From: Nitrospiraceae bacterium
GTDB taxonomy: Bacteria > Nitrospirota > Thermodesulfovibrionia > UBA6902
Length of the DNA stretch: 64,000 nt
Assembly (NCBI GenBank): GCA_003599505.1
Contig: QZKO01000045.1
Span: 2,535-66,534 of the forward strand
Direction of reading: 5' to 3'
Below, piece after piece: positions 31,589 through 63,928 of the stretch. A program made the translations under genes and the position numbers. The notes under the pieces are model-generated. The model searched no databases, had not been told where the DNA came from, and worked only from the letters and a program-made list of their open reading frames with translations. Each line of letters starts with the position of its first letter. Position 1 is the stretch's first letter.

Positions 31589-34096
31589 TTATCCTTCTAA
31601 TCTTGCCTCAAGCTCCGATTTGAAATCTCTATAAGTCTTTTCTTTCAATTTCTTAAAGAATAAATCATAACTCATTGGAGATAGAAATTTGAAATAATAT
31701 TTATGTTCCTGTTGCAGTTCATTAAGCCTGTTAAAGTGTTTTCTTGAATATTCAAGTTTTTTCCTATTCTCATCCCCTGATATTCCTTCATATGCTTTAT
31801 CATCTTTAATTTCTACCACAAGAATATCATTCAATATTTTTATGAAAAAATCAGGATTAAAACTCCCCTGCTTAGGATGCTCGCCTTTACGCCAGGAATA
31901 ATCAATCTTGTAAAAGCCTATATCAGGAGATTTAAACCATGCATCAATTATTCTGGAATTTTCTTCTTTGATTAGGCCCTTGATAAATTTTCGTTCAGGC
32001 TCATAAGCAGCCAATATTATATTCAGGTGCGTTTTGAAGTTGTATCTGTTTGCCACTTTTATAATAGCTGATTTTGGTAAACTCTCATCTTCATCAAGTT
32101 CTTTCAAAAGCTTAATATCTTCTGCTTCTCCTAAAATCAAAGAGTTGTCATCAAAGAATATTGTCCCATCACGTCTAAGCGACCCAATGCCAATGCTATT
32201 TTTCTTAACTTTAGTAGTACTAATTTTATATGGTTCATTTGATTTTGGGACTATCCTTGGGAAGATACTACTCTTTCTCTTAATAACGCCAAATGCGCGC
32301 AATGCTTTCAATCTATTTTCCTCACTGATAAAACTTGTCTTATCTTTTATTTCCTTTAAAGATTGTTGGATAACTTGCTCAATCCGTTTTTTAGTCCATA
32401 TTTCACTGTAGTTAGTTCCTGCATCCTGATCAAAGATATACAGCCGGTTAAAGATATCATTAGCAACATTTTTCACGGGATGCATATTCCTTGCAATATA
32501 ATATTCCCGTTTTTCTCTAAATCCTGTTATTACTGTCTCATATTCTGTTTCTTCTGGTACGATTGCATCTTGACTTGAAAAAGTTATATATCCTTTCTTG
32601 AGCAACTCAAATTCGTCCTCTTTTGGATACTCCTTATTTTCTCCTATGACCTTCTCATAATCAATCTGGTATAAATCAAAGTTGTAGTTCTCTTTCTTAT
32701 TTACAGGATAAGAATGGATTCTTTTCTCAATCTCAAGAACTTCATCTACCAGGTGTTTGATACTGCCTGACCATTTATCATGATTGAAAACTGTGACAAC
32801 TGGCTGATCTCCCTTATAGACTTCAGGTATCCTTAACCCTCTTCCTAAGACCTGCGCAATAAGAAGTTTTGAATTAAACGCCCTTTCCTCATGTGGAACA
32901 ATTTGAAAAACATTTTTAACATCCCAGCCTTCGGAAAGCATACTGACAGAAGCAATCCACTCTACAGGATTGTCTTTATCGTCTACCCTTCGCAGAATCG
33001 GGATATTGTTCTTATGTTCATTGGCAGAAGTAACAATTAAAACCTTCTCTGCCGCTTTCTCTTTGCTGATCTTCTCCTGTTTAGCAAGAAAAGTTATCAG
33101 CTTATCAGTCACTCGTTTACAGGCTGCTATGTTCTTTGTAACAAGGATAGTTATGGGTTTTACTTTCCGATATTTTATTTTCTTGTTTTCAATATGATTT
33201 TCGTAAATTTTCTGAAACTTCTCGTCCTCGTTTCCTGATGAGTCTTCAGCTACATAACGGATGCTTTTAACAAACTTTGACTCAATAGAATCTCTCAAAG
33301 AAAAGCGATGGATTACATCCGTGAAATAGTCATCTCCGATGTAGCAGGTACCTGAAAGGTTCACGATAAACCTGAATCCATATTTAGTGTCAAGCAGAAA
33401 TTCCTTCCACTTTTTGAGCGCAGTATCCGATGGACTCATAAGGTGATGAGCTTCATCGTTCAAAATGAGTGTTCGCTCCCCTTCCCCTACAAGGCTGTCT
33501 TCAATTGCTGATTTGGTATTTATGTAAGTAGCGTGAATATTCTCAATGCATATATCGCCCTTTTGAATGGTGTTAGATGCATTGATAATGCGTGGATTGA
33601 TTATTTTGGAATCAGCAGGCAAAAGTTCTTTTAAAGTTTTATCGGCTGATAGTGTTCTGAATTTTTCTGTTAAACCGGTCTCAATAGTATTTGACGGGCA
33701 GAGGACTAAAACCTGATCAACTGCGCCCTCTGCAAGCATAAGACGTGCAATGCCGTACATCACATAGCTTTTGCCTGTAGCCGTAGCATGCTCCAAAGAA
33801 CACGAAAGTTTATCAGGCAATTGCAGATGGGTTACAAAATCATCAATCGATGAATACTTCTCCTGAAGCTTTGGATTTTTGTGGTAGTTTTCTTCTACTA
33901 AATCCATGAGGCTTTTGTATTCACCGCCTAAAAAGTAGCGCAACGTCTCCCTGATTGCCTCTTTTTGATATTCCCTATTCTCACAGAGAGCATCTAAAAA
34001 AGCTTCATACTTGTTTGGGTCAAACCTTTTGGGGTCATAGTTGGGAGATATCTTGAGGACTAAATCTTTGTTTTGAAAAGTTTGACGGTCAAGCAT
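31589..34096 (-). CDS. res: Type III restriction enzyme Res subunit (SF2 helicase + PD-ExK nuclease)
   Basis: Walker A 'ATATGKSYVM', DEAH-box 'LILNDEAHHL' and a C-terminal 'NPDFFIKI...LVVEIKDDK' PD-(D/E)xK motif. AT-rich. Confidence 0.8.
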   Translation of the reverse strand: MLDRQTFQNKDLVLKISPNYDPKRFDPNKYEAFLDALCENREYQKEAIRETLRYFLGGEYKSLMDLVEENYHKNPKLQEKYSSIDDFVTHLQLPDKLSCSLEHATATGKSYVMYGIARLMLAEGAVDQVLVLCPSNTIETGLTEKFRTLSADKTLKELLPADSKIINPRIINASNTIQKGDICIENIHATYINTKSAIEDSLVGEGERTLILNDEAHHLMSPSDTALKKWKEFLLDTKYGFRFIVNLSGTCYIGDDYFTDVIHRFSLRDSIESKFVKSIRYVAEDSSGNEDEKFQKIYENHIENKKIKYRKVKPITILVTKNIAACKRVTDKLITFLAKQEKISKEKAAEKVLIVTSANEHKNNIPILRRVDDKDNPVEWIASVSMLSEGWDVKNVFQIVPHEERAFNSKLLIAQVLGRGLRIPEVYKGDQPVVTVFNHDKWSGSIKHLVDEVLEIEKRIHSYPVNKKENYNFDLYQIDYEKVIGENKEYPKEDEFELLKKGYITFSSQDAIVPEETEYETVITGFREKREYYIARNMHPVKNVANDIFNRLYIFDQDAGTNYSEIWTKKRIEQVIQQSLKEIKDKTSFISEENRLKALRAFGVIKRKSSIFPRIVPKSNEPYKISTTKVKKNSIGIGSLRRDGTIFFDDNSLILGEAEDIKLLKELDEDESLPKSAIIKVANRYNFKTHLNIILAAYEPERKFIKGLIKEENSRIIDAWFKSPDIGFYKIDYSWRKGEHPKQGSFNPDFFIKILNDILVVEIKDDKAYEGISGDENRKKLEYSRKHFNRLNELQQEHKYYFKFLSPMSYDLFFKKLKEKTYRDFKSELEARLEG

Positions 34097-34100
34097 AATT

Positions 34101-34613
34101 TCATTTCACCTCTGACCTGAAATCAGCTTTGTGTATACCCGCTTGTATTCTTTTTCTTGCTTCTTCAAAAGATTTCGTATCAGTTGAAGGAGAAAATTGA
34201 ACTATCAGATTGTATTTCTCTCGTAACCGCTTAACATTATGATAAAACTCTTCTTCTGAATAAAAATCTTTGAAAGTTTCATGTAACGATCTTGCTTCAT
34301 GTATTAATACTGTAAAATTCTTAGCAGCAAATAGGTGGTCTTTCGACTTTTTATCGTGTTCTAAAAGAATGTTTAGGATCGAAACTATACCTGAAAATAT
34401 AGTAACCCACGAAATCCAATTAGGCATTCCTAAAATCAAGGCAAAGGCACTCAAAACTGTAATTGCTGGCGGTACAAATTTATACCAAAAAGCTTTTCTG
34501 GAAAGCTTTTTCTCTATAATATAATGGGTTTCGGCAGTATAATTAGAATCTTCCTGAATCTGGTTACATTCTGCTATTAAGTTTTCAATTTTATTATTAT
34601 TCATGGTAAGCAC
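34101..34613 (-). CDS. SLATT-like 2-TM effector protein
   Basis: 170 aa with an N-terminal helix, a central pair of TM helices ('FVPPAITVLSAFALILGMPNWISWVTIFSGIVSILNILL') and C-terminal helices, the topology of SLATT domains. Overlaps the SMODS gene by 17 nt and ends 4 nt before the res start. Confidence 0.55.
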   Translation of the reverse strand: MLTMNNNKIENLIAECNQIQEDSNYTAETHYIIEKKLSRKAFWYKFVPPAITVLSAFALILGMPNWISWVTIFSGIVSILNILLEHDKKSKDHLFAAKNFTVLIHEARSLHETFKDFYSEEEFYHNVKRLREKYNLIVQFSPSTDTKSFEEARKRIQAGIHKADFRSEVK

Positions 34614-35547
34614 TTACGGGAAATGGAGCATCAAAAAGCTTTCTCCATGCCTCAATGGCTTCATTGTCACTCATAGCAAAAGTTTTTTTACAATGCTCAG
34701 CGATCTTATCAAACAACGTCGAGAGTCCTTGTTTTTCGGTTATAGACATATATCCGTCAGAAGAAGGAGATTTGCTTGCAGGTATATTTGCGGCTTTTAA
34801 AACTTCATCTTTACCCAGCAAGAAAAAATTATAAACTAAACTTGGATAATTAATTTGCCATTTTTGTTCTTTATAATAGTTAATTATAATTAAGATCAAA
34901 GATGCTGCTATCACTTCAAGATGATAAGATTTCATCATAGGGAATAGATTTCTTTTAGCAGCCTTAAGTATTTTAATTATAGGGATGAGATACCCATCAC
35001 TATTTTCATTTGATGATGCGATATGTTCCGCATCATAGTCATAATCAGCTATGACCCATTTATTATTTTTAGGAATCCAGTAACCTCTCCCTACCGGAAG
35101 AGTCGAAGTTCCATCAGGAGCTTTACCTATTTGATCAAGATACGCAGGAACAAGCTCAACTTTTACATTATCTTCATATTCAAAAGTTATTGTGGGATTA
35201 TCAGTCTCTACACCAAGTTTTTCATACGTTCCATGCTCAGTTACAATATCTTCTATCTTCTCCAGTGCATCTTCCGGTTTTATACCACCAGAAGGCAACC
35301 AGTTATAGAAGCTTCCTAATATAACCAATATATCAATATCAAAAATATCTTCCGACCATGGCTGTATTCTTGTCTTTCTTTGCAATGATCCGATCAATTT
35401 CGTCTCAATGGTTGAATCATATGATTCAATCCATTCCCTGATTGCATTGTGATGTGTTGTTACCTCTTCTTGGAAACTTTGGCTTAACTCAAGTTTTGAC
35501 TTGAACAGATTAAAAGCTTGAGTTATATTTAGAGCCATATTTATCAC
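34597..35547 (-). CDS. SMODS-family nucleotidyltransferase (CD-NTase-like second-messenger synthase)
   Basis: Pol-beta-type NTase signature '[23 protein letters not shown]' (GS-x14-DxD) and third acidic strand 'KVELVPA'. Overlaps the mod stop by 4 nt (ATGA). Confidence 0.65.
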
Positions 35548-37522
35548 TTCCTCCCAAAATCTTTTAAACTTTTTATTTCCCGCTTCTCATTCCCAAATAT
35601 ATCAATGTAAATAATCATGACTTGCCCTTTGACTTTATCGTCAACAAACCTCACCTCATAGTCGTTCTTCTTTAAATCCTCTGCGTAAAAAACTTCGTCA
35701 AGGTCAAAAACTTCTCCGTCAAAATCATAGTCCAGCATGACCATTGAAAGTGTCTCAAGGTTGGCAAATTCAACAGGTTTGCGGGAGATAATTCTGCTCT
35801 CAAACTTTTCAATCTTAATGACGCATTCTTTTATCTTCTGATTCAGCAGATCAGGATTTTTAGGTTTATCCAGATAATATTTGCACTCGACTGTCGGCAC
35901 CTGAACAAAGTCAAATCCTACAGCATCCACCGTATCATTGACATCCATTTCACTTACCGGTTGTTTTATCTTGGTAAATCCACGATTATGGATTTCCTCA
36001 ATAATGGAATAAGGGATGCGGAGAACAAAATATTTTGATTTTCCCTTAGCAATATAATCTTCAAGGAATTGTACCGAGGCAGCGGGTACGACGATGAAAA
36101 AGCGCCTGCCGATTTTGTCTCCAAGATACTTGTGTAGATCATCAATAAAGCCCCTGTCTAACATGGCATTTTTATATTTCTGGTAATTGAAGACAAGGAC
36201 GCTGTCCTCTCCAAGATAGCCATCGAGTTCAATCTTTGAAATCTCATGTTTTTCATCTCGGCACTGAAAGAGCTTTAATGCAAAGTCCCGATACTCCTCC
36301 CATGGAAGTCCTTTAAGCATTTTGTAATCGTAAAGACCTGCATTATAAAGAGTGAAAGGGTTACACTGCTTGCTGAATTTCTTTTTTGGATTCTCAAGGT
36401 CTTTGCTTTCACCAATGTTCAAAAAACGCTTTTGCATTGTATAAATTGCCAGCTTTCCACAGTCCACACCGATCCAACTCCTGCCGAGTTTTTCTGCAAC
36501 AGCAAGGGTAGTTCCTGAACCGGCAAAGCAGTCAAAAACAAGGTCGCCGGGGTTTGAAGAGGCTTTGATGATGCGTTGGAGCAAGGCTTCAGGTTTTTGG
36601 GTAGGGTAGCCAACCTTTTCAGTAGAAGTCGGGATTTGTTGAAAAGACATAATATCGTCCCAAACATCTCCGATAGCTTTTCCTTTTTCCATCACTTCAT
36701 CTAAATAACGTCTGCCACCTCTCCCGTCAAAATATTTCCTGCCGTCCTTATCTACTTTGTTGAATCTATCTATATATTCTTGTCGATGCTGGACGGCGAG
36801 TTTATTAAACATAAAGTCGTTGTTTTTAGCATAAAACAATAGAACATCATGACCTCTAATCCAGTTTTCAGCCTGCGTTTTAAATCCAGAGAGAACGCGA
36901 GTGTCCCAAACTACTTCTCTCTGGAAATGTTGTTCACCAAAAACCTCGTCTAAGAGAATCTTTATGTAGTGCCCTTTTTTTTCATCCAGATGCACATAAA
37001 TACTTCCATCTTCGCTCAATAACTCCTTCAAGCCCAAACAAGTCGCTTTCGTAAGAACTCCAGAAACCTCGCCCCTGCAATTTTGTCCTGATATGCTTTT
37101 TGATCCTGACTTCCACGAAACTCCTGCTTTGTTGCAAAGGGAGGATCAATATAAATTAATCTTACGCCCAGTGTGCCGTCAGCATTTTTGAGTTTTCCTT
37201 TATCCTTCATCTGCAAGAGGGTCTTCAACACTTGAAGGTTGTCGCCAAAGATGAGCATGTTTGTCCAACCGTTGCCGTTTTTACCATTCCGGAAGGTTTT
37301 TACTTTCTGCAAAGGCACAGCCATTGTATCAGCAAGGATATCTTCCTCACGATCCTTGTCGGAATAAATTAGCTCGTACTCTTTCTTGGTATCAAAGAGG
37401 AGGGAATGTTTAAGATTATTAAGCTGCGATATGAGGGCGTCTTTATGCTCTTTTGATAGCGGGTTACCTTTTACAAGAAGGCTTACAATTTCTTCAATAG
37501 CATTATTGGATAGTGTTCTCAT
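35544..37522 (-). pseudogene. mod: Type III R-M modification methyltransferase (Mod, N6_N4_Mtase family), disrupted by a -1 frameshift
   Basis: N-terminal fragment 37028..37522 carries 'IYIDPPFAT' (motif IV, DPPF). C-terminal fragment 35544..37037 carries 'YPTQKP...[15 protein letters not shown]' (motif I). The fragments overlap in different frames. Adding one T to the T3 run (plus-strand AAA at 37036-37038) restores a continuous '[24 protein letters not shown]' reading frame. Confidence 0.7.
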
Positions 37523-37672
37523 TTGTTTATTACTAATAGAATCAATTCAAACCTATTATTGGCCCCAATGGGTATAAGATAAGACCTAATACCACTATTT
37601 GTCAATGTTAATTAGGTGTATTGATACATTCACAAACCTTCCTTGTTAATCGCATGATTATGGGGAGGTTAA

Positions 37673-37990
37673 ATGAAAACAAAAGAGCTGATAGGCAAAA
37701 GAATTCAGGAGCTAAGAAAAAGAAGTGGTCTTTCTCAAGAGAAAGTTGCAGAGAAGGCAGATATCAACCCTCATTATCTCAGCCGTATCGAATGCGGCAA
37801 AGAAAACCCCACCCTCGACATGCTCATAAAACTCTCCAATGCCCTTGAAATTGAAATGTGGGAGATGTTTGACTTCGGGCATGTTACCGAAAAGAAGATA
37901 CTTAAAGAATCTCTCCAAACGTTCCTCAAAACCGCTGACGAACCTACCCTCCGCCTCGCCCTGAAAATCATCAGGGCTATTACAAGATAG
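37673..37990 (+). CDS. XRE-family HTH transcriptional regulator (possible controller of the divergent R-M/defence operon)
   Basis: 'LSQEKVAEKADINPHYLSRIECGKENPTLDMLIKLSNAL' HTH_XRE motif. Divergent from mod. RBS 'ggggagg' precedes the ATG. Confidence 0.8.
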   Translation: MKTKELIGKRIQELRKRSGLSQEKVAEKADINPHYLSRIECGKENPTLDMLIKLSNALEIEMWEMFDFGHVTEKKILKESLQTFLKTADEPTLRLALKIIRAITR

Positions 37991-38053
37991 CTTTCTTTCC
38001 CCTATCTTTTTATCACCTGTGATAAAATAACTTAAACGTGACAGGAGGTAATT

Positions 38054-38293
38054 ATGCCGAAAACCATAGAGGCTATTTATGAGGATGGGGTTTTCAAGCC
38101 TATTAAGAAAATCCGCCTTAGAGAACATGAAAAAGTTGAACTGTCTGTACTGACAAAAGCCGAGATTGATGATGTGGCCCGGAAGGCATTAAGCATAATA
38201 GGGATAGGGGGAAGCGGATTGAAAGATACCGCCCAGAGGCATGACGAATATCTTTACGGGAAGAAGCGACATATGCTGAAGAGAAAGAAATGA
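38054..38293 (+). CDS. DUF104-family antitoxin
   Basis: 'MPKTIEAIYEDGVFKPIKKIRLREHEKVELSV' is the characteristic DUF104 antitoxin N-terminus. Its stop overlaps the PIN gene start. Confidence 0.6.
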   Translation: MPKTIEAIYEDGVFKPIKKIRLREHEKVELSVLTKAEIDDVARKALSIIGIGGSGLKDTAQRHDEYLYGKKRHMLKRKK

Positions 38294-38706
38294 TATTTGT
38301 TGATACGGGTGCGTGGGTTGCAATTGCTGATAAAAACGATCAATATGCAAAAGAAGCAAGTCAACAATATACGAGTTTTATTCTAAAAAAGGAGAGGCTT
38401 GTTACATCCAATTTAATCCTTGTTGAAACTTATAATCTCCTTTCACAGACTATAGGGGCCAAAGCTACAATCAGGTTTGGAAATATCCTGAATTCAACCA
38501 ATCTTGTCAGAGTCGAGATCATTACAAAAACAGACTGGGATAGGGGCTGGAAAATTCTTGAGAAATATGATGATAAAGAATTTTCTTTTACGGATTGCAC
38601 AAGCTTTGCTTTAATGGAACGGTTAAAAATAAGAACCGCTTTTTCTTTTGATGCACACTTTGTACAGTATGGTTTTACTAAAATTCCCCCAACGATCCTA
38701 AGGTAA
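38290..38706 (+). CDS. PIN-domain toxin (VapC-like)
   Basis: 'MIFVDTGAWVAIADKND' (first acidic residue) and 'FSFTDCTSFALMERLKIRTAFSFDAHF' (C-terminal acidic residues) of the PIN fold. Confidence 0.8.
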   Translation: MIFVDTGAWVAIADKNDQYAKEASQQYTSFILKKERLVTSNLILVETYNLLSQTIGAKATIRFGNILNSTNLVRVEIITKTDWDRGWKILEKYDDKEFSFTDCTSFALMERLKIRTAFSFDAHFVQYGFTKIPPTILR

Positions 38707-38730
38707 TCCCTTCAATCATTTTACGACGTA

Positions 38731-39228
38731 TCAAGGAATCTCTTCTAATGAACCAACCGGAGAATAAAATCCATAATCAATCATACGGTTCAGGATTTCA
38801 TCGGCCTTTTTGGGATTAACAGCTTTTCTTCTCACTGCTTTTACAAGAATCCCTATTGTGCCTGTCAATTTAATTCCTGATAAACTTGCCTCTCTTCTTG
38901 CTGCCTTATCGTCACATGCAAATACAAAACCTCTTGCTTTTGCAAGAGAAATACAGGAGGCTTCTCCAAAACCCAGTGATACGGAAAGCGATTCAAAGAG
39001 GGCTTTTTCACTCCTGCTGCGAAGTGTTATTTCTTTGAGCCAGCCATTTCTCAAAGCTTCTCTTATTCTGATAAGCTGGTTGAAGCCTGCAAGTACACCC
39101 TTAGTATTTTCAGCAGACACAAAGTCTGTAATATATGCATTATTTGCGTATAAGATTTTAATTATATCAAGGGAATCCGACAGGGCAAAATTACTCAGGA
39201 CACAATTGTCGAAAATTATTTCAGGCAT
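38731..39228 (-). CDS. DUF3368 / PIN_3-family nuclease-like toxin
   Basis: 'IIFDNCVLSNF...GEASCISLAKARGFVFACDDKAAR' matches COG2405/DUF3368 PIN-like proteins. Confidence 0.65.
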   Translation of the reverse strand: MPEIIFDNCVLSNFALSDSLDIIKILYANNAYITDFVSAENTKGVLAGFNQLIRIREALRNGWLKEITLRSRSEKALFESLSVSLGFGEASCISLAKARGFVFACDDKAARREASLSGIKLTGTIGILVKAVRRKAVNPKKADEILNRMIDYGFYSPVGSLEEIP

Positions 39229-44677: not shown

Positions 44678-46105
44678 TTATGATAACGCTGCCTTTACAC
44701 GTTCCACTAAAACTTTTACTTCCTTATCCTGCACGGTCCTTGCGTCAATGAGCAGGGCGTTGTCTTTGATCCTCGCGATTACAGGGGGATCGCCGAGCCT
44801 TAATTTTTTTTCCAGCTCGTTGACTGATATAGTAAAAGGCTTGAGAGACACCGCGAAGGTCGGAAAATTAACTTCCGGAAGAGAGCCTCCTCCAGCCTGT
44901 GACTCATCGGCAACGACCGCAAGCGCTGAACGGGCGGAAATGTCTTTTATTAAAAGCGAAAAAATTCTCTTTGCCCTGCGCTTTATTTCAGATAACGGCT
45001 GCGTCAGCATCCTGAGTGTGGGGATTTCTTTGATCGCCTTTTCTTCATCGAGGTACTGCATGAATGTCGCCTCAAGCGAAGCGAGGGTCATCTTGTCTAT
45101 CCTCATGGCCCTGAGCATCGGGTTTTTCTGGATCTTCCGTATCAGCTTTCCCCTGCCGATGATTATCCCGGCCTGAGGACCGCCGAGGAGTTTGTCGCCG
45201 CTGAAAGTCACAATATCCGCGCCCGTCCTGACGACTTCCTGCACTGTCGGCTCGCCGTGCACACCGTATTTTGAAAGGTTGATCATGCACCCGCTGCCGA
45301 GGTCGGCAACGACCGGCAATCTGAATTCCTTTCCGAGTTTCACCAGCTTTTCGAGCGGGACTTCTTCCGTAAAGCCGGTTATCCTGTAATTGCTCTGGTG
45401 GACCTTCAGCAAAAGCGCCGTGTCACCGCACAGGGCGTTTTCGTAATCAGCAGGGTGGGTCTTGTTCGTGGTCCCGACCTCTCTCAATATGGCCCCGCTC
45501 GCCTTCATGACTTCAGGTATCCTGAAAGAGCCCCCTATCTCGACAAGCTCTCCCCTTGATACAATTACTTCCCGGCCTTTCGCAAACGTATCAAGACAGA
45601 GAAGCACGGCCGCCGCGTTATTGTTCACGACAACCGCGTCCTCAGCGCCGGTCAACTCCCTGATAATGTCCTGTATATGCGAATACCTCTTTCCTCTCTT
45701 GCCTGTAGGGATTTCATATTCGAGGTTGGAAAAACTCCGGGCGGTGGCTGATACATGAGCAAGCGCCCTTTCCGAAAGGAGCGACCTGCCGAGATTTGTG
45801 TGCATGACAATCCCGGTGGCGTTTATCAGGGGCCTGAGTTTGTACGCTGAAAGCTTTTTAACAACAGTTTCAATATCCCGTGAAACGGCTTCAATCGATA
45901 CGTCGGTGCTTGCGCCGTTTAATATTTCCTTTCGTTTCGAATCAATGACCTCTCTGACGGCGCGCAGCACTGTTTTTCTTGGAAATGATGCAAGCCACTT
46001 CTGCCCGTATGAGCTCTTTAAACATTCATCAACAGACGGCAATTGCGAAAGCTGCTCCCGGATGGTCATGTGTCTTTTGTAGCACAAGGGGGGGGTTGTG
46101 GTCAA
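44678..46105 (-). CDS. selA: L-seryl-tRNA(Sec) selenium transferase (selenocysteine synthase)
   Basis: 'LINATGIVMHTNLGRS...' with the PLP-lysine region 'FSGDKLLGGPQAGII' is SelA-typical. The start is probably the internal Met at 46069 (MTIREQL). Confidence 0.85.
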   Translation of the reverse strand: MTTTPPLCYKRHMTIREQLSQLPSVDECLKSSYGQKWLASFPRKTVLRAVREVIDSKRKEILNGASTDVSIEAVSRDIETVVKKLSAYKLRPLINATGIVMHTNLGRSLLSERALAHVSATARSFSNLEYEIPTGKRGKRYSHIQDIIRELTGAEDAVVVNNNAAAVLLCLDTFAKGREVIVSRGELVEIGGSFRIPEVMKASGAILREVGTTNKTHPADYENALCGDTALLLKVHQSNYRITGFTEEVPLEKLVKLGKEFRLPVVADLGSGCMINLSKYGVHGEPTVQEVVRTGADIVTFSGDKLLGGPQAGIIIGRGKLIRKIQKNPMLRAMRIDKMTLASLEATFMQYLDEEKAIKEIPTLRMLTQPLSEIKRRAKRIFSLLIKDISARSALAVVADESQAGGGSLPEVNFPTFAVSLKPFTISVNELEKKLRLGDPPVIARIKDNALLIDARTVQDKEVKVLVERVKAALS

Positions 46106-46148: not shown

Positions 46149-46784
46149 TCACCTTTTTAATGGTGGCCAGAGATTTTCCCTAAGAAGCCTCTTGTCTATA
46201 ACCTGCTCCGATACTTCGAAATACCGGGCGATTGCATGAGCAATATATTCCCTCGCGGATTCTCCGGATGAATCCCATGTATTAAAGCCTGAACTTTCCA
46301 ATAGTAAGACAGCTTCATTTAGTTTCTCAACGAGTTTTTCTCTTGGCACAAGCAGCCGTCCTGCAAATTCATAGGCATGTTGTTCGATCCATGTGTATTG
46401 ATCATCAGGGATTTTATCAAAGAAATCTATCCATTCTTCAAGTGAAGCATATTGGATTTTTGAGAAGACATCGGAATGAAGAACGTAATGCCCAATCTCA
46501 TGTGCAATTGAAAATCTAAGCCTGTTCTGTGCCCGGTCATTCAGAAAGTCGTTCTGGTCTACCACTATAGTTCTTAAATCGCCGAGCAGGAGAGCATCAA
46601 CGTCTCCGGCTTCACGCAAATTGAAGATGGTGCGTATTTCTATGTCCAGTCCGAATTCCAGAATTTCGAATATGTCTATCGGGATGGTGTTTTGGGGCCA
46701 GTATCGAATGCGGAGATCATCCGCCGCTTTTCTTATATCTTCAATTTTTATGAATGGCGCTTTGAAGCTCTTGGGGTCTAACAC
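46149..46784 (-). CDS. ImmA/IrrE-family Zn-metallopeptidase (CapP-like)
   Basis: 'FSIAHEIGHYVLH' HExxH motif in the DUF955 context. Immediately downstream of an XRE HTH gene. Confidence 0.8.
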   Translation of the reverse strand: MLDPKSFKAPFIKIEDIRKAADDLRIRYWPQNTIPIDIFEILEFGLDIEIRTIFNLREAGDVDALLLGDLRTIVVDQNDFLNDRAQNRLRFSIAHEIGHYVLHSDVFSKIQYASLEEWIDFFDKIPDDQYTWIEQHAYEFAGRLLVPREKLVEKLNEAVLLLESSGFNTWDSSGESAREYIAHAIARYFEVSEQVIDKRLLRENLWPPLKR

Positions 46785-46790
46785 GGGATA

Positions 46791-47168
46791 TCAGCTTTTT
46801 TTAATTTTCGCTGCCAGTTTTCTCATTTCTTCTTCTGTCGGTTTTTGTCCGCGCAACGTCCTGAAAAAGGCAGGAAGCATCCTTACGACTTCAGGGTCGG
46901 ACATAATGTCTTTGGGAATAATTCCCCGGTTGGCGGCGGCAAGGTCAAAAAAAGCATACCAGTCACTGCTGCCCTTTGTGATACCCAAGGCTTCTGCATA
47001 GCGTTCCAGTATGTCGGGATCCTGAGGCGGAGGCATAGCGCCCCGTTCGATCCGGCTGACATTTGCCGGGTCAGCGGATGCCTTGAGACAAAATTCTCTG
47101 AGAGTTATCCTCTTATTTTTTCGAAGGCTCTTTAGAAAGGCTCCAAAAGACTTATATTCGCCACTCAT
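46791..47168 (-). CDS. XRE-family HTH regulator (CapH-like)
   Basis: 'ITLREFCLKASADPANVSRIERGAMPPP' HTH_XRE motif, paired with the ImmA/IrrE peptidase. Confidence 0.8.
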   Translation of the reverse strand: MSGEYKSFGAFLKSLRKNKRITLREFCLKASADPANVSRIERGAMPPPQDPDILERYAEALGITKGSSDWYAFFDLAAANRGIIPKDIMSDPEVVRMLPAFFRTLRGQKPTEEEMRKLAAKIKKS

Positions 47169-47195
47169 AGTTCCCCTTCCATCGACTTGTATTTG

Positions 47196-47212
47196 TTGTA
47201 CAATTATTACAA
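47196..47212. promoter_or_regulatory. Inverted repeat TTGTA-N7-TACAA (contains palindrome TTGTACAA), candidate operator upstream of the XRE gene
   Basis: Read directly: 'ttgtacaattattacaa' lies about 30 nt upstream of the XRE start codon (47168, minus strand). Confidence 0.4.
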
Positions 47213-47271
47213 ATTTATCAGGTTAAAGTCAACAATTAGTGAGTATAACACCATAGAATTTTTCCAGACGA

Positions 47272-50200
47272 TTACATCTTATTATATTTTTTATACAAAT
47301 CTCTCAAAAATTCATAACCCTTCATCCCGTAAATATTACATAGGTTATCAGCATCTTCTTTATGTCCATTAATGTAGAGTTTTTCAACTATTGAGCGGAT
47401 GTGCTCTTGTCTGAAATCAGTGATAAAATGTTCAAGCATTTTCAGCAATATCTTCCCGATATAGGCAATGCTTGCAGGATCGTCGAATTTATCGAGGTAT
47501 TCAATGATGAAGGACGAATGATAATCTTCGTTTGCGAAAGGGGCTGCCAGCATCAGCCACTGTGAATATTCCTCATGAATATATGGAAGGTAAATTGCCA
47601 ATTTTCCAAGGGCGGACAATATTTTCTTGTCATCAGAGCTTATATCTTCCTTAGGTTTTGTCTTATATTTATTATCATAGATCCACTTCCAGCAATAGAT
47701 AATTTTATCGACGATTTTCCGGCTCTCTTCTTTTCCATCCTCAATCTGTTTCTGGTTTGACCAGAAAAAGCTGACAACATTCAATATTTGTTCTCGATTC
47801 CAAGCATCTAAAACATTCCTGAATAAACTTTCAGGGTTGCTTATATCCTCATTCCCAAGCAAATATCCCAGGGCTATGTGCTGCACCAAATGTTCAATAT
47901 CATGTTTATTCTTAAATTCATATGTTATCCCAAGTTTATAGTGAGGGATCATAAGGTTGTAGAGATCATCGTAAACTTTGCCGATCGACAAGTAACCATC
48001 CATGAAAGCTACCCAGTACTTATCAACTGTAACCGGGTACAAACCTTTGATTCTTTCTTCGGCCCATGCTTTGTCCAAATAGAACAAATTAGGCAGATAT
48101 CGACCAAGGAAAGTGTAACTCTCAATAATCTTCTTTTCTAAAAGCTCATCATATTTCCCCTTAATCTTCGAACTCCATTTTATTTCCGCTTCAACACCAG
48201 CTCTATCATTGGTACGAGCAATCCTCAAAGCGAGATTTATGAATGCGGACAATGTCTTCCCATGCGAAGAATTTAAAGCATGAGTTACATAATCCGACTT
48301 TTCCTCTTCTTCCTCTGCTTTCAGATTATCAAAGATAAGAAACAGGATTTGTTCTGCTTTCTTTAAATACTTCTCATCAAACGCCCATGAATCATCTCTC
48401 GTTCCTTCTCGTATAAAGTCTGTGATTACACCAATTATCCAGAAATGATTGGCTCCGCCGAGAAAATCCTCTTTTTCAACTATGAATTCATCTTTCCAAA
48501 ATTCATTCCTATCAATATATAGGTGCAGAAATTCAAATAATTTACCCCAGGCAATATCCAGCTTTTTACTCCATGCTTCCTTTGCGCCATCAAGAATTTC
48601 ATAAATATATATAAATCCGGTGTTGATGAATGGAGATAAGTTGTCGATAAATTTATTTGGCTGCTCAGCAGCACATTCTTTTATTAATTTTGCCAATCCC
48701 CCTACGGTAGGGCCTTCTTCCCAAAGACCCGTTGATGATTTAAACTCCTTGAGGTAAGAAGGAAGTTTGTTTGTGGTCAACATATGCAAAATATCTTCTT
48801 TTGTTAAAGGCGAAGTCCCCCAACCAGATCGAATTTTAATCTCTCCCATGGCCGCGTGTAAGCCCACATCCCAGCCAGTTTGAGACTTAAAAGATTCATA
48901 TAATTTTTTAAATTCCGGAAATCTTACAAGTGCCTGACATCTTTGCTGTTTCCACTCTGCAATGTGTCTTTCTGCATCTTTCGCAGGAACAAATCCGGGG
49001 CCATCATTCAGTTTCCTGAATATTAATTCTTTTTGATTAGATGATAGTTCTAATAAATTCTCTAAAACATGTTTCAACTCGTCTCCGAAATCTATTTCTC
49101 CGAAAACAAGATTATCTGAATCCTTTTCTAATGCATCCCAGAATACTTCACTATATTTGTTGACATTATTTCCAATGATATATAGGGCCATCTTCGGAAA
49201 ATAAAAATATTTATCCCTAAAAAAGTCTTGCAATATTTTTTTTGTTTCAGCGGCATGTTTCCATGCCCTTGCCATTAGAATACTTTTCAAGACAAATGTA
49301 AGTACCTCAAGCGGGTCTGTAAGGTGGTTTCTTGATTCATCATAAAAACTTGCATGTGTTTCCTCATCATGAAAGTTGCGATATAGCCTATAAATATTTC
49401 TTTTTAATTCTTTTATATCTATACTCTTAAGCAGCACATCTTTTGTTAACTCATCAAATACGTTAGATGAGAAGTTGTCTAATGTAGTCTCATCCATTGT
49501 TATTTTCTTAAGTGGTGTTCCTCCCAGTTTCTTCTTCCTGAACACATATTCATAAACATCAGACTCAGTCTTATAACCCATATCAAAAAGCTTTACTGAA
49601 TATTTAGCGTCAATAGATGTAAGCGCTAACAGATATGCTTTATCCCCTGCCTCAAAAGGAATTAATGATTCATCTTTTTTCAGTAAAGTGTGTATCTTGT
49701 CACATAAAGGATATATAGCGCCATTTGTACACTTTTCTCCAATATCTCCAGAGAGTTTTTCAAATATAGTCTTTACCCAATATGAATCTATAACAAGTTT
49801 ATATTCCTCTTCTTTGTTATAGATTCGGGCTCTCTCTTCGGACAACTTAACAGACTTTATGTTAGTTATATAATCAACAATCCGTTCAGCTTTAGTAATA
49901 TCCTTATGGGAAGGATTTCCAGACAGGAATTTAGGCAATAATTTGAGGCCAATTTCTGATCCCACAAACGATGCATCAAACCTGGAACTAAGCCAAACAG
50001 GAATTAACTCAATAATATAAATCGGTATTTCTTCTCTCGGAATATTAAGCAAGATTGATACAAAACTTCGCCATGTATAGTAGTTATCTATATGTTGACT
50101 ATCTGAGTTTTTATAATTTGAAACAGCGTTAATGATTTGGAGTAACTCATCTATATACTTTTTATTACCTTGTTTATTGACTTGCTCGGACACCTTTTCT

Positions 50201-50457
50201 AAATAAGTGAGAACATTCCACCAGGGGATTGAATAAAACCCTTCTTGATCAGAGGGCTTAGGACCAGGTGCATTTTCAGCGGAAAAATAATTTTCTTTTT
50301 TGAGAATATGAAACCATTCAATATTGGTAACATTCTTAAAAAAATAATTATTATATGAATCTTCTTTTATAAGATCCACGACTTGCTGACTTAAATTGCC
50401 AGTGCCAATAGCATCATCAATGATTTTAACTTGCTTATAATATTCAGACTTAGTCAT
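47272..50457 (-). CDS. Large (1061 aa) predicted all-helical protein of unknown function, translationally coupled partner of the SIR2-like protein
   Basis: Long uninterrupted ORF with K/E/Y/N-rich composition, AT-rich DNA and no recognisable catalytic motif by eye. Its start overlaps the SIR2 gene stop by 8 nt. Confidence 0.6.
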   Translation of the reverse strand: MTKSEYYKQVKIIDDAIGTGNLSQQVVDLIKEDSYNNYFFKNVTNIEWFHILKKENYFSAENAPGPKPSDQEGFYSIPWWNVLTYLEKVSEQVNKQGNKKYIDELLQIINAVSNYKNSDSQHIDNYYTWRSFVSILLNIPREEIPIYIIELIPVWLSSRFDASFVGSEIGLKLLPKFLSGNPSHKDITKAERIVDYITNIKSVKLSEERARIYNKEEEYKLVIDSYWVKTIFEKLSGDIGEKCTNGAIYPLCDKIHTLLKKDESLIPFEAGDKAYLLALTSIDAKYSVKLFDMGYKTESDVYEYVFRKKKLGGTPLKKITMDETTLDNFSSNVFDELTKDVLLKSIDIKELKRNIYRLYRNFHDEETHASFYDESRNHLTDPLEVLTFVLKSILMARAWKHAAETKKILQDFFRDKYFYFPKMALYIIGNNVNKYSEVFWDALEKDSDNLVFGEIDFGDELKHVLENLLELSSNQKELIFRKLNDGPGFVPAKDAERHIAEWKQQRCQALVRFPEFKKLYESFKSQTGWDVGLHAAMGEIKIRSGWGTSPLTKEDILHMLTTNKLPSYLKEFKSSTGLWEEGPTVGGLAKLIKECAAEQPNKFIDNLSPFINTGFIYIYEILDGAKEAWSKKLDIAWGKLFEFLHLYIDRNEFWKDEFIVEKEDFLGGANHFWIIGVITDFIREGTRDDSWAFDEKYLKKAEQILFLIFDNLKAEEEEEKSDYVTHALNSSHGKTLSAFINLALRIARTNDRAGVEAEIKWSSKIKGKYDELLEKKIIESYTFLGRYLPNLFYLDKAWAEERIKGLYPVTVDKYWVAFMDGYLSIGKVYDDLYNLMIPHYKLGITYEFKNKHDIEHLVQHIALGYLLGNEDISNPESLFRNVLDAWNREQILNVVSFFWSNQKQIEDGKEESRKIVDKIIYCWKWIYDNKYKTKPKEDISSDDKKILSALGKLAIYLPYIHEEYSQWLMLAAPFANEDYHSSFIIEYLDKFDDPASIAYIGKILLKMLEHFITDFRQEHIRSIVEKLYINGHKEDADNLCNIYGMKGYEFLRDLYKKYNKM

Positions 50458-51316
50458 TTGTTGTCCTCATGTCATCTTCTACTCCGAGCTTTACGGTTTT
50501 AAAATATTTTGTTATCCAATCTTCTAATACGATAGGGAATGTATTACGCTTACCATATATTATTGATTCAATTCCGTTTAGTTCTTTGAATACTGTCAAG
50601 GTTGATGAATTAAACAGATTAGACATATCTTCTTCCGGCAATAATAAAAAATGATATTTATTATTATCATTTGTCTCTTGCATTATATCCAATATCTCCC
50701 GATCCCTTAAACCGTAACCAATAAATATGACACAATATTTTTTAAACAAGCTTTTTAAAAATCTCCGAAATGATGCTTCACGATATCTGGGTATATATTG
50801 TTCTCTCGTCAGCAAACTCTTTTCAAGATCATATTCGGATCCATGTATATGAAAAATACCTGAACTATTTAAGTTTGTCTCAATAAAATGTTCTGTTTTG
50901 TAGTATATTTCACTTAAATTAAATTCCTTTGTATTTTCTAAGCAGTTATCTATATTAGTGGTAATTATTTGAGGAAAGGGAGTAATCAGTTTCAATAGTT
51001 TTATAACAGGAAAATATTTTTCTGGATATAATTTTACATCGGGAACTAAAGCTTCTCGGACTATCCCCCAATATGTGTTTTCATTACCATTTCTTTTAAA
51101 TATATTGAAGCAATAATTTAGAATTTTTTCATTTTCCATGTCACCAATTAGTTCTTCTTTCTTAATTCCGCTTTCTTGTATTTCAATGTGATCAAGCATT
51201 TTTTTTGCAACAGAGTCCCAATCATAACAACCGGCTATCTTAGAAAGACCTGCACCTATAAATAGCGCACATTTATTATGTTTAATATATGGTAATACAG
51301 CATTCAATCTTTCCAT
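50450..51316 (-). CDS. SIR2_2-family (defence-type sirtuin-like, predicted NADase) protein
   Basis: 'CALFIGAGLS' (NAD-binding Gly-rich), 'IITTNIDNCLE' (TTNYD-like), 'IFHIHGS' and 'VIFIGYGLRD' match the SIR2_2 signature of ThsA/DSR-type defence proteins. Confidence 0.7.
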   Translation of the reverse strand: MERLNAVLPYIKHNKCALFIGAGLSKIAGCYDWDSVAKKMLDHIEIQESGIKKEELIGDMENEKILNYCFNIFKRNGNENTYWGIVREALVPDVKLYPEKYFPVIKLLKLITPFPQIITTNIDNCLENTKEFNLSEIYYKTEHFIETNLNSSGIFHIHGSEYDLEKSLLTREQYIPRYREASFRRFLKSLFKKYCVIFIGYGLRDREILDIMQETNDNNKYHFLLLPEEDMSNLFNSSTLTVFKELNGIESIIYGKRNTFPIVLEDWITKYFKTVKLGVEDDMRTTND

Positions 51317-51550
51317 TTTATTCTATTATCTCATCGCCTTCTGCAAAACCACTTACATAAGCATTTTGCTATCTTTTCGGGACGGACATTCAATTCATCC
51401 CGCAGCACTTCTTGTATTTCTTCCCACTGCCGCAGGGACAGGAATCGTTGCGGCTGGTTCTTCCGCTTAATTCTAATCCAACTCCCATCAAACGGCAAGA
51501 AAATAGTGGAGGGTGTCAAACGTTCGTAAGTGGGGACGTTTTGAAATAAT

Positions 51551-58085: not shown

Positions 58086-58183
58086 TGGCGGGAGCGTGTG
58101 GGAATCGAACCCACCATGCTCACTTGTGGCAAGCAACACCGGATTTGAAGTCCGGGAGGGACACCAGAACCCTATACACTCCC
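58086..58183 (-). tRNA. selC: tRNA-Sec (anticodon UCA)
   Basis: Minus-strand sequence GGGAGTGT...CCCGGACTTCAAATCCGG...GTGGGTTCGATTCCCACACGCTCCCGCCA. It has an 8-bp acceptor stem, anticodon loop CU-UCA-AA, a long variable arm, T-loop TTCGATT and encoded CCA. Length is about 98 nt. Confidence 0.75.
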
Positions 58184-61051: not shown

Positions 61052-62227
61052 TCAAAATGGTAGCACATCTCGCACTAAATACTTCAGAAATTTCGCACTT
61101 GTAGCTGCCGCAAATGATCGATCTATATCAGTTTTGTCCCTGGTCCGATCCATAATCGATTTAACTATAATGGCCTTTGATATCCCGTCGCCCACCGTTT
61201 TGCATGCACGAGCAACAGAATAACTTTCCATATCAACAGCAATAGACTTTCTGTCAGCAGGTGAAATAAGCTCTTTAAATCCGTCCGATTTGTTGAGTAC
61301 GATAGTACCACAAGCCATGGGTTCCATATGAACATTTATGCGCTGGTCACTATATCGCTTAGCCCTGCTCGGATCGTCCTTTTCAACAGATAAGCATAGA
61401 TCTTTTTTACTATCATTAATTTGCTGCAATATTGTTGTATCAATTTCACAGCTTGCGATCTCAGCCTCAAACCCTTTATCCGTCAGTTTTCCCTTCTGGT
61501 AAAGAAAAAGCTTAGTTGCAATAACTATATCGCCCATTTTTATTTTCTTATTATCAGGATTGCCGCCACATACACCAGTCATAGCCATATATTTAGGCGA
61601 GCTTTTTACTATTAATTCAGCCGTAAGGATTCCTGCATCCACTATTCCTGTCTCGGCAAGATAACCGGCAAGAACTTTAATGTTATGCCCCCTTTTTGAG
61701 ACCAACTCTCCACTGTAAAGAATTTTTGTCTCTGTCGAATGAGCGTCGTCTTTCCTTAAGTTGAATTCTTTACTAAGGTTTTCAAATTCATCATCGAAAG
61801 TCGCAGTCAAAATTGCAAGATCGAATATCTGCGGGCTGGTCACTTCTAATGCGGTTTTTGTGTTAACGGGAAATTTGTTGACTTCTTCCTTTTTCAAAAG
61901 GTGCAATGCATACACTTTGACGTTCTTTATTTCGTCATTCCTTTTAAGATCGCTTCTGGTTAGAAATTGAAATATCAATCTATTACTATATTTCTTTAAT
62001 TGATCCGCAAGAGGCTCTCCAGGATACGGCGGCTGCCTGTAGCCCGCATCAAGATGAACCCAAACACGGAACCGCGCGTTGTCTCCCATGATTCCCAAGA
62101 AATCTGTAAATTTTCTTATGTCTGTAAACGTAAGAACATTTAATTCCAGGCTACGCAAATAATTTTCATATTGTCTTATATCATCATCGGCTTTGCTGAT
62201 AATGAAAAAATCCCATATTTGTGACAT
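61052..62227 (-). CDS. Receiver-like domain fused to PNP_UDP (MTA/SAH-nucleosidase-like) phosphorylase domain (Detocs DtcC-like effector)
   Basis: N-terminal 'FFIISKADDD...RVWVHLDAGY' resembles a REC domain (Asp pocket). The C-terminal 'AMTGVCGGNPDNKKIKMGDIVIATKL...AVDMESYSVARAC...KAIIVKSIMDRT' matches the PNP_UDP_1 nucleosidase fold. Confidence 0.6.
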   Translation of the reverse strand: MSQIWDFFIISKADDDIRQYENYLRSLELNVLTFTDIRKFTDFLGIMGDNARFRVWVHLDAGYRQPPYPGEPLADQLKKYSNRLIFQFLTRSDLKRNDEIKNVKVYALHLLKKEEVNKFPVNTKTALEVTSPQIFDLAILTATFDDEFENLSKEFNLRKDDAHSTETKILYSGELVSKRGHNIKVLAGYLAETGIVDAGILTAELIVKSSPKYMAMTGVCGGNPDNKKIKMGDIVIATKLFLYQKGKLTDKGFEAEIASCEIDTTILQQINDSKKDLCLSVEKDDPSRAKRYSDQRINVHMEPMACGTIVLNKSDGFKELISPADRKSIAVDMESYSVARACKTVGDGISKAIIVKSIMDRTRDKTDIDRSFAAATSAKFLKYLVRDVLPF

Positions 62228-62248
62228 CTGATCCTCCTTAATTAATAT

Positions 62249-63928
62249 TTACGTGCGATTTAATAATCTCAATTCAAAGCGTGGTGCCGAATCGAGATTA
62301 TCCATACGAAATCGTCCATTAAATTTCTCTGCAGATTCTTTAATCAACGGGATGCCATGTCCCTCACGATAATCATCTGGAAAAGCTTTGTTTTGTTCAA
62401 TCGTAAAGATGACGAATCCTTCTTCTTTATAGACGTTACAACTGCAAGTCATATTTTCATTCTTCAACGCGTTATTGATAAGTTCTTCAAAAATTCCTCT
62501 TAAACATTCCTTGAAAATAAAAACATAGTCTTTATTTTCTATTAACAGTTTAGAATCATCAATGGCAATATTTTTATCATTTATTCTTGTGAGCATGCTG
62601 TCCTTTACCTTTTTCCAAGTGCCAATTAAATCTACGCGTTCATTTTTTCTGATAAGTTCAGCAAAGGAACCTTTTTGAGATATAACATCGACTTTCAAAG
62701 CTACCAAAGATTCTCGCAGTCTTAGCATGCAATCTTTAAGATGGGCTTCTCTGCCAGTCAACTCTTGAATTAATGCAAAATTATGATCAAGCCGAGCAAA
62801 TAGTTTACATACCGAATTATCTGCTTCAAAGAAGGTTGAGTACAATCTCGGGAAATTGCGCTTTAAAAAATCATTATTATTAAATGATTCAATAAAAACG
62901 TCAATTATCCCTCTAATGTCATTCATTAGTGCTCTATATTCTTTTGAAAACTCTACTAAATCAAACTCGGTTGCTTCACGATTTAAAAAAATCAATAAAT
63001 CTATTAAATCTTTTTCAATTTGAGAATGGTCTGAAGTTAGTATGCCCTCTTTATTAAAAAAATCTACCACACTATTAAATGCCGCCTCAAAAGAACTGCT
63101 ATTCTTAATGATATCGTATGTTTTATATATTTCTTTTAAAATGTTCCAACTATATGTCTTTTGTCCGTTGGTTTCCTCTAAAGCAGTTCTCACCTCATCA
63201 ATTAAATAGGACAAGTTCTTTTGTGATGCGCTTTCAGTATTATTATTTACAATGTCATTCCACAAGATGTAAGCCAAATAATCAAGAGCGCCATTATCAT
63301 CTGCCGCATAAATAAAAATACTTTTCAGAGTCTCCGCCTTATAAAATTCGTGAGAGTTTATAACATAATGAAACCTCAACAACTCTGCCTTTTTCCATCG
63401 GTTATGAATATCTGGCAAACCGTTGCTATAAATTATTTTCGATATGACATTTCTTAGCTCAAGCTTAAGTTCCGGCAAGAATTGATTAATTGAGTTCATA
63501 AGCTGTGGCTCATGCAATAGGACAGCCATAAAAATTTCAAACGTGTCTGTAGTTATTGCAATTTGCTGAAATTCATTTAAGTAATCAGAAAATAATCTGT
63601 ATGTTTCCAGCTTCCCCAATTTGTCTCTAAGCAAGTATGCCTTCTTTAGGTCTATACCGACTGGCAAATAATCGGGGCTTCCACGATAGATGCCTTTATG
63701 GTCTTCTCCTATGTCGTTATTATCATTCAGCGGTGCCCCAGCAGTATCATATTCCTGTAAACCTCTTAGTCTATATGTTAAATATTTCATAACTGATTTT
63801 GGAGGGCTTGGAGCCCGCCTCCTAATACTAATTAACTGGCGTTTTTCCTCACAGAAAGGACACGATGAGCGCGCCGCATAATTTGGAATATGCAAATTAA
63901 CCCCAAAGAATATTTCAATGGGGACCAT
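62249..63928 (-). CDS. Histidine-kinase-like protein with large N-terminal sensor region (Detocs DtcA-like)
   Basis: C-terminal HATPase_c motifs 'ELINNALKN' (N-box) and 'GHGIPLIKESAEKFNGRF' (G-box). A candidate H-box is 'REAHLKDCM'. Lies 21 nt upstream of the REC-PNP gene on the same strand. AT-rich. Confidence 0.55.
   Translation of the reverse strand: MVPIEIFFGVNLHIPNYAARSSCPFCEEKRQLISIRRRAPSPPKSVMKYLTYRLRGLQEYDTAGAPLNDNNDIGEDHKGIYRGSPDYLPVGIDLKKAYLLRDKLGKLETYRLFSDYLNEFQQIAITTDTFEIFMAVLLHEPQLMNSINQFLPELKLELRNVISKIIYSNGLPDIHNRWKKAELLRFHYVINSHEFYKAETLKSIFIYAADDNGALDYLAYILWNDIVNNNTESASQKNLSYLIDEVRTALEETNGQKTYSWNILKEIYKTYDIIKNSSSFEAAFNSVVDFFNKEGILTSDHSQIEKDLIDLLIFLNREATEFDLVEFSKEYRALMNDIRGIIDVFIESFNNNDFLKRNFPRLYSTFFEADNSVCKLFARLDHNFALIQELTGREAHLKDCMLRLRESLVALKVDVISQKGSFAELIRKNERVDLIGTWKKVKDSMLTRINDKNIAIDDSKLLIENKDYVFIFKECLRGIFEELINNALKNENMTCSCNVYKEEGFVIFTIEQNKAFPDDYREGHGIPLIKESAEKFNGRFRMDNLDSAPRFELRLLNRT

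Follow-up and report, generated by a model that had tools for sequence, protein, structure and literature searches.

A probable two-gene variant of the DSR1 anti-phage system, with separate SIR2 and helical sensor genes, in a Nitrospiraceae bacterium

Canonical DSR1, a defence-associated sirtuin (DSR), carries an N-terminal SIR2 NAD+ glycohydrolase (NADase) and a helical sensor of ~950-1050 amino acids (aa) in one polypeptide, and it is usually handled as a single-gene system. A bilobed TPR architecture has been reported for Dsr1. In the literature, DSR1 is described as protective against phage, with a depletion of nicotinamide adenine dinucleotide (NAD+) that is transient and without collapse of the culture. 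Escherichia coli Dsr1 and Avs7 have a sensor in common, whose trigger is the phage major capsid protein (PMC13581612), and a published survey describes the combination of this sensor with diverse effectors (Nature 2026, PMC13581612); the methods of that paper mention the handling of 'split proteins'. DSR2 is a single chain of ~1000 aa whose alpha-solenoid binds the phage tail tube protein. Here we describe a pair of overlapping genes, one for a 288-aa SIR2 protein and one for a 1061-aa helical protein, in a 64,000-nucleotide (nt) stretch of DNA from a Nitrospiraceae bacterium (assembly GCA_003599505.1, contig QZKO01000045.1; the whole stretch is called the window). We consider it probable, at roughly 80%, that the pair is a two-subunit (split) anti-phage system of the DSR1 family, in which the SIR2 NADase and the helical sensor are encoded as two genes.

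The coordinates of the two genes and of their overlap are as a sequence-only reading of this DNA had claimed:

50450..51316, minus strand: SIR2 effector subunit gene, 288 aa (open reading frame, ORF; Pfam SIR2_2)
47272..50457, minus strand: sensor subunit gene, 1061 aa (ORF)
50450..50457, minus strand: stop/start overlap of 8 nt, ATGACTAA (end of the SIR2 ORF and start of the sensor ORF)

The overlap ATGACTAA is consistent with translational coupling of SIR2 and sensor. Both proteins matched the same PADLOC Dsr1 model (PDLC04166, 1227 positions), the SIR2 protein over positions 20-237 (expect value, E, of 1.4e-42) and the sensor with E=1.3e-137, reaching position 1226 of 1227. Because the two proteins match one Dsr1 model colinearly, we assign the pair to the DSR1 family as a split form. 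In a joint alignment the window pair was also colinear with the fused proteins P0081 (1344 aa), P0095 (1357 aa) and P0109, the last of which matched the PADLOC Dsr1 model end to end with 1431 bits. Homology to the window sensor begins at residue 290 of P0081, so that the boundary within the fused protein coincides with the split in the window (288 + 1061 aa compared to 1344 aa). The 110 homologues of the large protein comprised stand-alone proteins of ~940-1090 aa, TIR fusions of ~1100-1215 aa, SIR2 fusions of 1229-1357 aa and fragments at contig ends; one of the TIR fusions (P0004) was 76% identical to the window sensor. Against the NCBIfam Dsr1 model NF041818, the model of canonical Dsr1 with a cut-off of 1400 bits, the sensor regions of the relatives P0004, P0028 and P0109 gave weak colinear matches of 27-60 bits.

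The sequence-only reading had taken the pair for an undescribed system with a DSR2-like architecture, and on both counts the evidence went the other way. The two halves lie colinear on a single Dsr1 profile, fused full-length relatives exist, and the published survey mentions split proteins. The sensor had no PADLOC Dsr2 match at E<=0.1, and the 50 best Foldseek matches to the sensor model included no DSR2 chain, though such chains are in the Foldseek library. The division into a sensor and an NADase effector, on two apparently translationally coupled genes, was borne out as that of a split defence-associated sirtuin. The finding is a two-gene variant of DSR1, not a new system.

The pairing of the two genes was examined in 75 loci with our own SIR2, TIR and sensor profiles, using one genome per species and metagenome assemblies; a metagenome scan with a single protein gave 4 loci, and close relatives were fetched individually. 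A separate SIR2 gene stood directly upstream of a stand-alone sensor in 39 loci and upstream of a TIR-sensor fusion in 8 (L009, L018, L027, L033, L035, L041, L062, L066). SIR2 and sensor were fused in 11 loci, in six loci a TIR-sensor was present and the search upstream gave no SIR2 (two of the six with little or no upstream sequence), and 4 were of other kinds, including a PIN_12-sensor fusion. Among loci with readable upstream DNA there was no stand-alone sensor without an upstream SIR2 gene. From the SIR2 stop to the sensor start, split loci mostly showed an overlap of 1, 4, 8 or 11 nt, and the NTGNNNTRA geometry of the 8-nt overlap was also present in L072, L073, L074 and L075. Viewed from the SIR2 side, three of three arbitrarily chosen window-type SIR2 genes preceded a sensor with this same 8-nt NTGNNNTRA overlap. 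Co-occurrence across genomes and a PADLOC run had been suggested as checks on the pair; their outcomes are the 39 loci above and the shared Dsr1 model.

Hosts of the family loci belong to Nitrospirota, Planctomycetota, Clostridia, Atribacterota, Thermotogota, Gammaproteobacteria and archaea. The Vibrio coralliilyticus plasmid pOCN014 (RefSeq, from a cultured organism; L072 248126..251867) carries a split pair of 306 aa (WP_040122581.1) and 942 aa (WP_040122582.1) with an 8-nt overlap, and Bacillus anthracis pXO1 (L071) carries a fused 1326-aa 'SIR2 family protein' beside a helix-turn-helix (HTH) regulator. The pOCN014 pair adjoins a SLATT gene. Both members are plasmid-borne in cultured organisms, which makes them convenient for experiments.

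A profile search of 1.84 billion cluster representatives returned 4145 relatives at E<=1e-3 and 1423 at E<=1e-30. The best 150 of the 4145 comprised 98 stand-alone sensors, 20 TIR fusions, 10 SIR2 fusions, 11 proteins with other N-termini and 11 partial ones. Judged by these representatives, the two-gene form dominates the subfamily of the window, ~70% of the complete proteins among the best 150 being stand-alone. Other N-termini are represented by L051 (1628..5479), P0250, P0258 and P0282: the sensor also occurs with a PIN_12 nuclease domain of ~250 aa at its N-terminus, and several representatives have N-terminal extensions of ~140-160 aa that carry no family label.

That fused relatives of equal total length exist (P0081, P0095), and that the window DNA comes from a metagenome-assembled genome, would suit an explanation by a single fused DSR1 gene that was recently frameshifted and is now inactive, or by an assembly error. 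We find this hardly credible. Thirty-nine independent loci, drawn from many phyla and assemblies, have the split with proper start codons and short overlaps, and the 8-nt overlap geometry is kept in relatives whose SIR2 proteins are just 45-58% identical. Both window ORFs are full length with their motifs intact, and the RefSeq plasmid of the cultured Vibrio shows the identical arrangement. Moreover, the sensor opens with the linker helix KSEYYKQVKIIDDAI in the window, L059 and L061, and in L001, L002 and L005 the equivalent helix closes the SIR2 protein. The differing split points exclude a frameshift artefact and indicate that fission or fusion happened more than once; by alignment, at least two distinct split points exist.

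The SIR2 protein matched Pfam SIR2_2 with E=1.1e-21 (77.9 bits, cut-off 24.5), and the four SIR2_2 motif blocks previously read from its sequence were present. G21-A22-G23-S25, T119-T120-N121-D123, H156 and G159 were invariant in 27 aligned SIR2 homologues, and H158 was at least 90% conserved in the same set; N121 and H158 are candidate catalytic residues. In the AlphaFold2 model (predicted local distance difference test, pLDDT, 89; predicted template modelling score, pTM, 0.85), the last 12 residues, the C-terminal tail 277-288, were the sole part predicted to be disordered. The best structural matches of the model were ThsA, the SIR2 domain of DSR2 and KomC (template modelling score, TM, 0.61-0.70). 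The PADLOC models that matched the protein were Dsr1, ThsA, LmuA, PDC-S25 and, marginally, the SIR2-pAgo-associated model. PD-T7-2 and other two-gene PADLOC SIR2 systems were ruled out, as no such model was among these matches.

We predict that the SIR2 subunit is an NAD+ glycohydrolase. SIR2-fold enzymes also include deacylases and ADP-ribosyltransferases, the reaction is not fixed by sequence alone, and the NAD+ depletion by DSR1 is, as noted, transient and without culture collapse; these points would fit a protein that modifies a specific target, as a deacylase or ADP-ribosyltransferase, and does not act as a bulk NADase. Such a role seems to us quite improbable, however, as the nearest relatives in both sequence and structure (Dsr1, ThsA, DSR2, KomC) are all defence NADases, and the Pfam family of the protein is SIR2_2, not the classical sirtuin family.

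The large protein had been described as helical in character and free of recognisable motifs. Its AlphaFold2 model (pLDDT 90.4) was almost wholly helical, forming an alpha-solenoid of HEAT/ARM-like type with a beta-rich insert at about residues 200-322. A Pfam scan of the sensor gave no family above threshold, in line with the second part of the description, which nevertheless failed at the strong PADLOC Dsr1 match. Neither the single sensor sequence nor a profile of 35 sequences gave a meaningful match in PDB sequence searches. The most variable part of the sensor was a beta-rich insert at about residues 260-360, missing from ~60% of homologues, and the most conserved block was residues 81-200, adjoining the former SIR2 junction; residues 3-19 correspond to the former linker helix.

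With its most conserved part in this N-terminal block beside SIR2, and not in the solenoid, the large protein might instead be an antitoxin-like inhibitor or scaffold, SIR2 being freed once the large protein is broken down or no longer made. The gene order, the tight coupling and a potentially toxic NADase would fit such a toxin-antitoxin-style arrangement. We nevertheless judge it improbable. DSR1-family proteins have a sensor portion to which the large protein is homologous, and differential stability of two proteins cannot operate in the fused forms. In addition, the E. coli Dsr1 sensor is triggered by a specific phage protein according to the literature, and a 1061-aa solenoid is far bigger than known antitoxins.

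For a split DSR1 system we propose the following mechanism. SIR2 and sensor would be made together through translational coupling and would assemble non-covalently, the break lying at the former linker, between the disordered SIR2 tail 277-288 and the sensor linker helix 3-19. The HEAT-like solenoid would keep SIR2 inactive until a phage protein is bound, as with the major capsid protein in the case of E. coli Dsr1. Ligand binding would then release or oligomerise SIR2, leading to NAD+ hydrolysis and a stop to phage replication.

The pair lies in a segment that is AT-rich relative to its flanks, as had been noted earlier (GC content 30-39% across 47-51 kb compared to 47-53% in the flanks). Comparison with the unrelated contig L002 defined the boundaries of this segment:

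~46150..51501, minus strand: AT-rich acquired island of ~5.3 kb, with a yecA-like relic and the SIR2, sensor, XRE and M78 genes (blastn against L002, GC content)
51343..51501, minus strand: relic of a YecA-like UPF0149/SEC-C gene (blastn against L002, ORF translation)

By blastn, window 51501..51457 aligned with L002 2933..2977 (91%) and window 51452..51343 with L002 3660..3769 (89%). Nucleotide similarity was absent over the entire SIR2 gene and over ~100 nt at the start of the sensor gene. Similarity resumed at window 50359..46162 (83.6%), running through sensor, XRE and M78 and ending ~13 nt before the M78 stop. This pattern places the island at ~46150..51501 and shows that the SIR2 gene was replaced between conserved flanks. 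The relic consists of 45 nt of the upstream region of the YecA-like gene, its last ~25 codons (end at 51390) and a conserved spacer that precedes the SIR2 slot. An intact YecA-like gene lies upstream of SIR2 in L002 (2994..3722), L061 (115..879) and L062 (4181..4936) and a fragmented one in L001 (1067..1695); these genes of the closest relatives are 73-81% identical to one another in amino acid sequence, and none was found in the more distant genome loci L004-L058.

The GC content inside the island was 30-44%, compared to 47-53% outside. With these boundaries against an unrelated contig, the earlier suggestion of horizontal acquisition stood. As to the flanks it had named, selA (TIGR00474, 619 bits) and TIGR03790 (248 bits) were recovered by profile, and uvrA is the assignment of the sequence-only reading alone. 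The island is inserted within a selenocysteine-related neighbourhood, with selA at 44678..46105 and the sole tRNA, a tRNA-Sec at 58086..58183 (minus strand), 6.5 kb from the island. No direct repeats of note flanked the island, and no tRNA integration site of note was found.

Replacement of the SIR2 gene was not confined to this one comparison. Sensor and SIR2 identities were essentially uncorrelated over 52 loci (Spearman 0.07; 1316 locus pairs, which are not phylogenetically independent), and in the 51 locus pairs with sensors at least 60% identical the median SIR2 identity was 27%. Sensors 62-82% identical to that of the window carry at least 6 types of SIR2, which are 22-31% identical to one another. 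The reverse case also occurs, L001 and L070 having SIR2 proteins 90% identical and sensors 70% identical. The partner SIR2 proteins of L004, L007, L020 and L061 gave no match to the Dsr1 SIR2 profile, their best matches being of ThsA or LmuA type. These exchange counts are pairwise, not tree-based, and come mostly from metagenome contigs. We tentatively suggest, as a possibility short of even odds, that the SIR2 position is a hot-swappable effector slot beside a conserved sensor, fed by different lineages of defence SIR2 (Dsr1 type, ThsA/LmuA type). If this were so, the sensor would activate SIR2 generically, for example by induced proximity or oligomerisation, and not through a co-evolved interface. 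Splitting of the gene might then be an adaptation for rapid effector exchange, for example in escaping phage inhibitors of SIR2, and the usual picture, in which the sensor varies and the effector is conserved, would be inverted.

Two further genes of the island follow the sensor, preceded by a promoter-like site of their own:

46791..47168, minus strand: XRE-family HTH protein, 125 aa, CapH-like (Pfam HTH_31, HTH_3; PADLOC capH E=2.9e-6)
46149..46784, minus strand: M78 (ImmA/IrrE) zinc metallopeptidase, 211 aa, HEIGH motif, CapP-like (Pfam Peptidase_M78 E=4e-12; PADLOC capP E=2e-15)
47195..47232, minus strand: promoter-like site TTGACT, 18 nt, TG-AATAAT, overlapping the palindrome TTGTAATAATTGTACAAC (promoter scan)

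The palindrome TTGTAATAATTGTACAAC lies at 47195..47212, just upstream of the XRE gene, and is a candidate autoregulatory operator of that gene. The region between sensor and XRE genes is 95% identical to those of L002 and L003. According to the literature, CapH/CapP pairs regulate diverse immune operons, with cleavage of the repressor by the peptidase stimulated by DNA damage or single-stranded DNA (ssDNA), and the described pairs lie upstream of and divergent from the operon that they regulate. Like CapH/CapP, and also ImmR/ImmA and DdrO/IrrE, the window has an HTH repressor and an M78 HExxH peptidase beside a defence operon. In contrast to the described pairs, the two genes here are downstream, on the same strand and under their own promoter, and pairs of the window type are present in just a subset of relatives. 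The CapH/CapP-like label given to them earlier is upheld by the sequences of both proteins and not by their arrangement.

In L002, L003, L062 and L067 the pair comes after the sensor, and in L043 it is found 2 kb downstream. Most loci, including the close ones L001, L059, L068, L069 and L070, are without it. A WYL-domain gene takes its place in L070 (6131..6544), and an HTH_3 protein is encoded downstream of the sensor in L073 (7793..8107), which suggests that the regulatory accessory downstream of the sensor is also exchangeable.

It is possible, although we find it doubtful, that all four genes form one obligatory system, a CapH/CapP-like switch controlling the SIR2-sensor operon on DNA damage. 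The four genes were transferred together as a block, with nucleotide homology to L002 and L003 through the M78 gene; the pair recurs behind or near the sensor in the five loci just named, and the PADLOC matches are to proteins known to regulate diverse immune operons. However, most family members, the five close ones included, are without the pair. Its position on the same strand differs from that of the described upstream-divergent pairs, and the sole palindromic operator candidate is at the XRE promoter; a search for a second copy of TTGTAATAATTGTACAAC upstream of SIR2 found none. Because described CapH/CapP pairs sit upstream and divergent, we read the XRE/M78 pair as an accessory regulatory module travelling with the island. 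It probably autoregulates, and control of the SIR2-sensor genes by it is no more than possible. In the proposed mechanism the XRE repressor and M78 peptidase would be a stress-responsive regulatory pair (DNA damage or ssDNA), carried along with the island and controlling at least its own expression.

Several points weigh against parts of the split DSR1 reading and its mechanism. The NCBIfam Dsr1 equivalog, which we take to represent the canonical E. coli-type protein, gave 17 bits for the SIR2 protein and no match for the sensor, with a cut-off of 1400. These scores far below the cut-off imply that the window pair belongs to a distant sister group of canonical Dsr1, and the capsid trigger of canonical Dsr1 may not transfer to this group. 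PDB sequence searches and Foldseek retrieved no solved DSR1 or Avs7 sensor structure. The physical association of SIR2 and sensor is argued from homology. The eight loci with a separate SIR2 and a TIR-sensor fusion hold two NADase-type domains per two-gene unit, which is not accounted for by a simple model with one sensor and one effector. As for the regulators, the palindrome TTGTAATAATTGTACAAC occurs once in the window, at the XRE promoter.

The window has two other AT-rich stretches. The first (31589..39228, GC 33-41%) holds genes of defence type, among them one for a DUF3368 protein and the following:

31589..34096, minus strand: ResIII/SNF2 helicase
34101..34613, minus strand: SLATT_4 two-transmembrane effector
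34597..35547, minus strand: SMODS nucleotidyltransferase
35544..37037, minus strand: N6/N4 DNA methylase
38290..38706, plus strand: PIN protein

The SMODS and SLATT genes look like a minimal module resembling a cyclic-oligonucleotide-based anti-phage signalling system (CBASS), inside or beside a restriction-modification-like cluster. In the second stretch (61052..63928, GC 35-39%), a PNP_UDP_1 phosphorylase-like protein (391 aa, minus strand) is encoded directly after a 559-aa protein without a Pfam match, and these could be a further pair of defence type. Another PNP_UDP_1 gene is found near the related system of L062, a few genes downstream.

Literature searches found no experimental study of the two-gene form. 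What seems to be under-appreciated is the dominance of the split form in this subfamily and the SIR2 gene as an exchangeable cassette. A natural two-piece version would allow direct tests of how a helical sensor of phage proteins switches on a SIR2 NADase, and the apparent free exchange of divergent SIR2 genes bears on how effectors and sensors recombine in nature. Two-gene loci may be mis-called by annotation pipelines built for a single Dsr1 gene.

Among known systems, Thoeris resembles this one in that the window SIR2 fold is nearest to ThsA in the PDB and in that some relatives pair a separate SIR2 with a TIR domain, in the form of a TIR-sensor fusion. It differs in that the 288-aa protein is SIR2 only, leaving no room for a SLOG/Macro signal-binding domain, and in that the window system has a ~1000-aa solenoid sensor; the ORF list and Pfam scan showed no TIR gene in the island, and the PADLOC ThsA matches of the SIR2 protein (E=1.6e-14 and 5.4e-12) were far weaker than the Dsr1 match. 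With the Avs7/Dsr1-sensor proteins the window shares the use of one sensor family with many effectors, here SIR2 (fused or split), TIR and PIN_12. The window proteins, however, have no STAND NTPase domain, and the likeness to Avs7 is drawn at the level of design. DSR2 follows a shared logic, that of a SIR2 NADase under a large helical repeat sensor, and the superposition of the window SIR2 model on the SIR2 domain of DSR2 has a TM of ~0.65-0.69; the window sensor, on the other hand, shows no homology to the tail-tube-binding domain by the PADLOC Dsr2 search. The departures from DSR1 are that the window pair is two overlapping genes and not a single polypeptide, that it falls below the NF041818 equivalog threshold, and that the SIR2 partner in its subfamily is exchangeable among divergent SIR2 lineages. 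Otherwise the window pair has what characterises DSR1, a SIR2 domain of NADase type followed by a ~1000-aa helical sensor, with the motifs GAGxS, TTNxD and HG and a homologous large helical region, carried on a horizontally acquired segment resembling a defence island.

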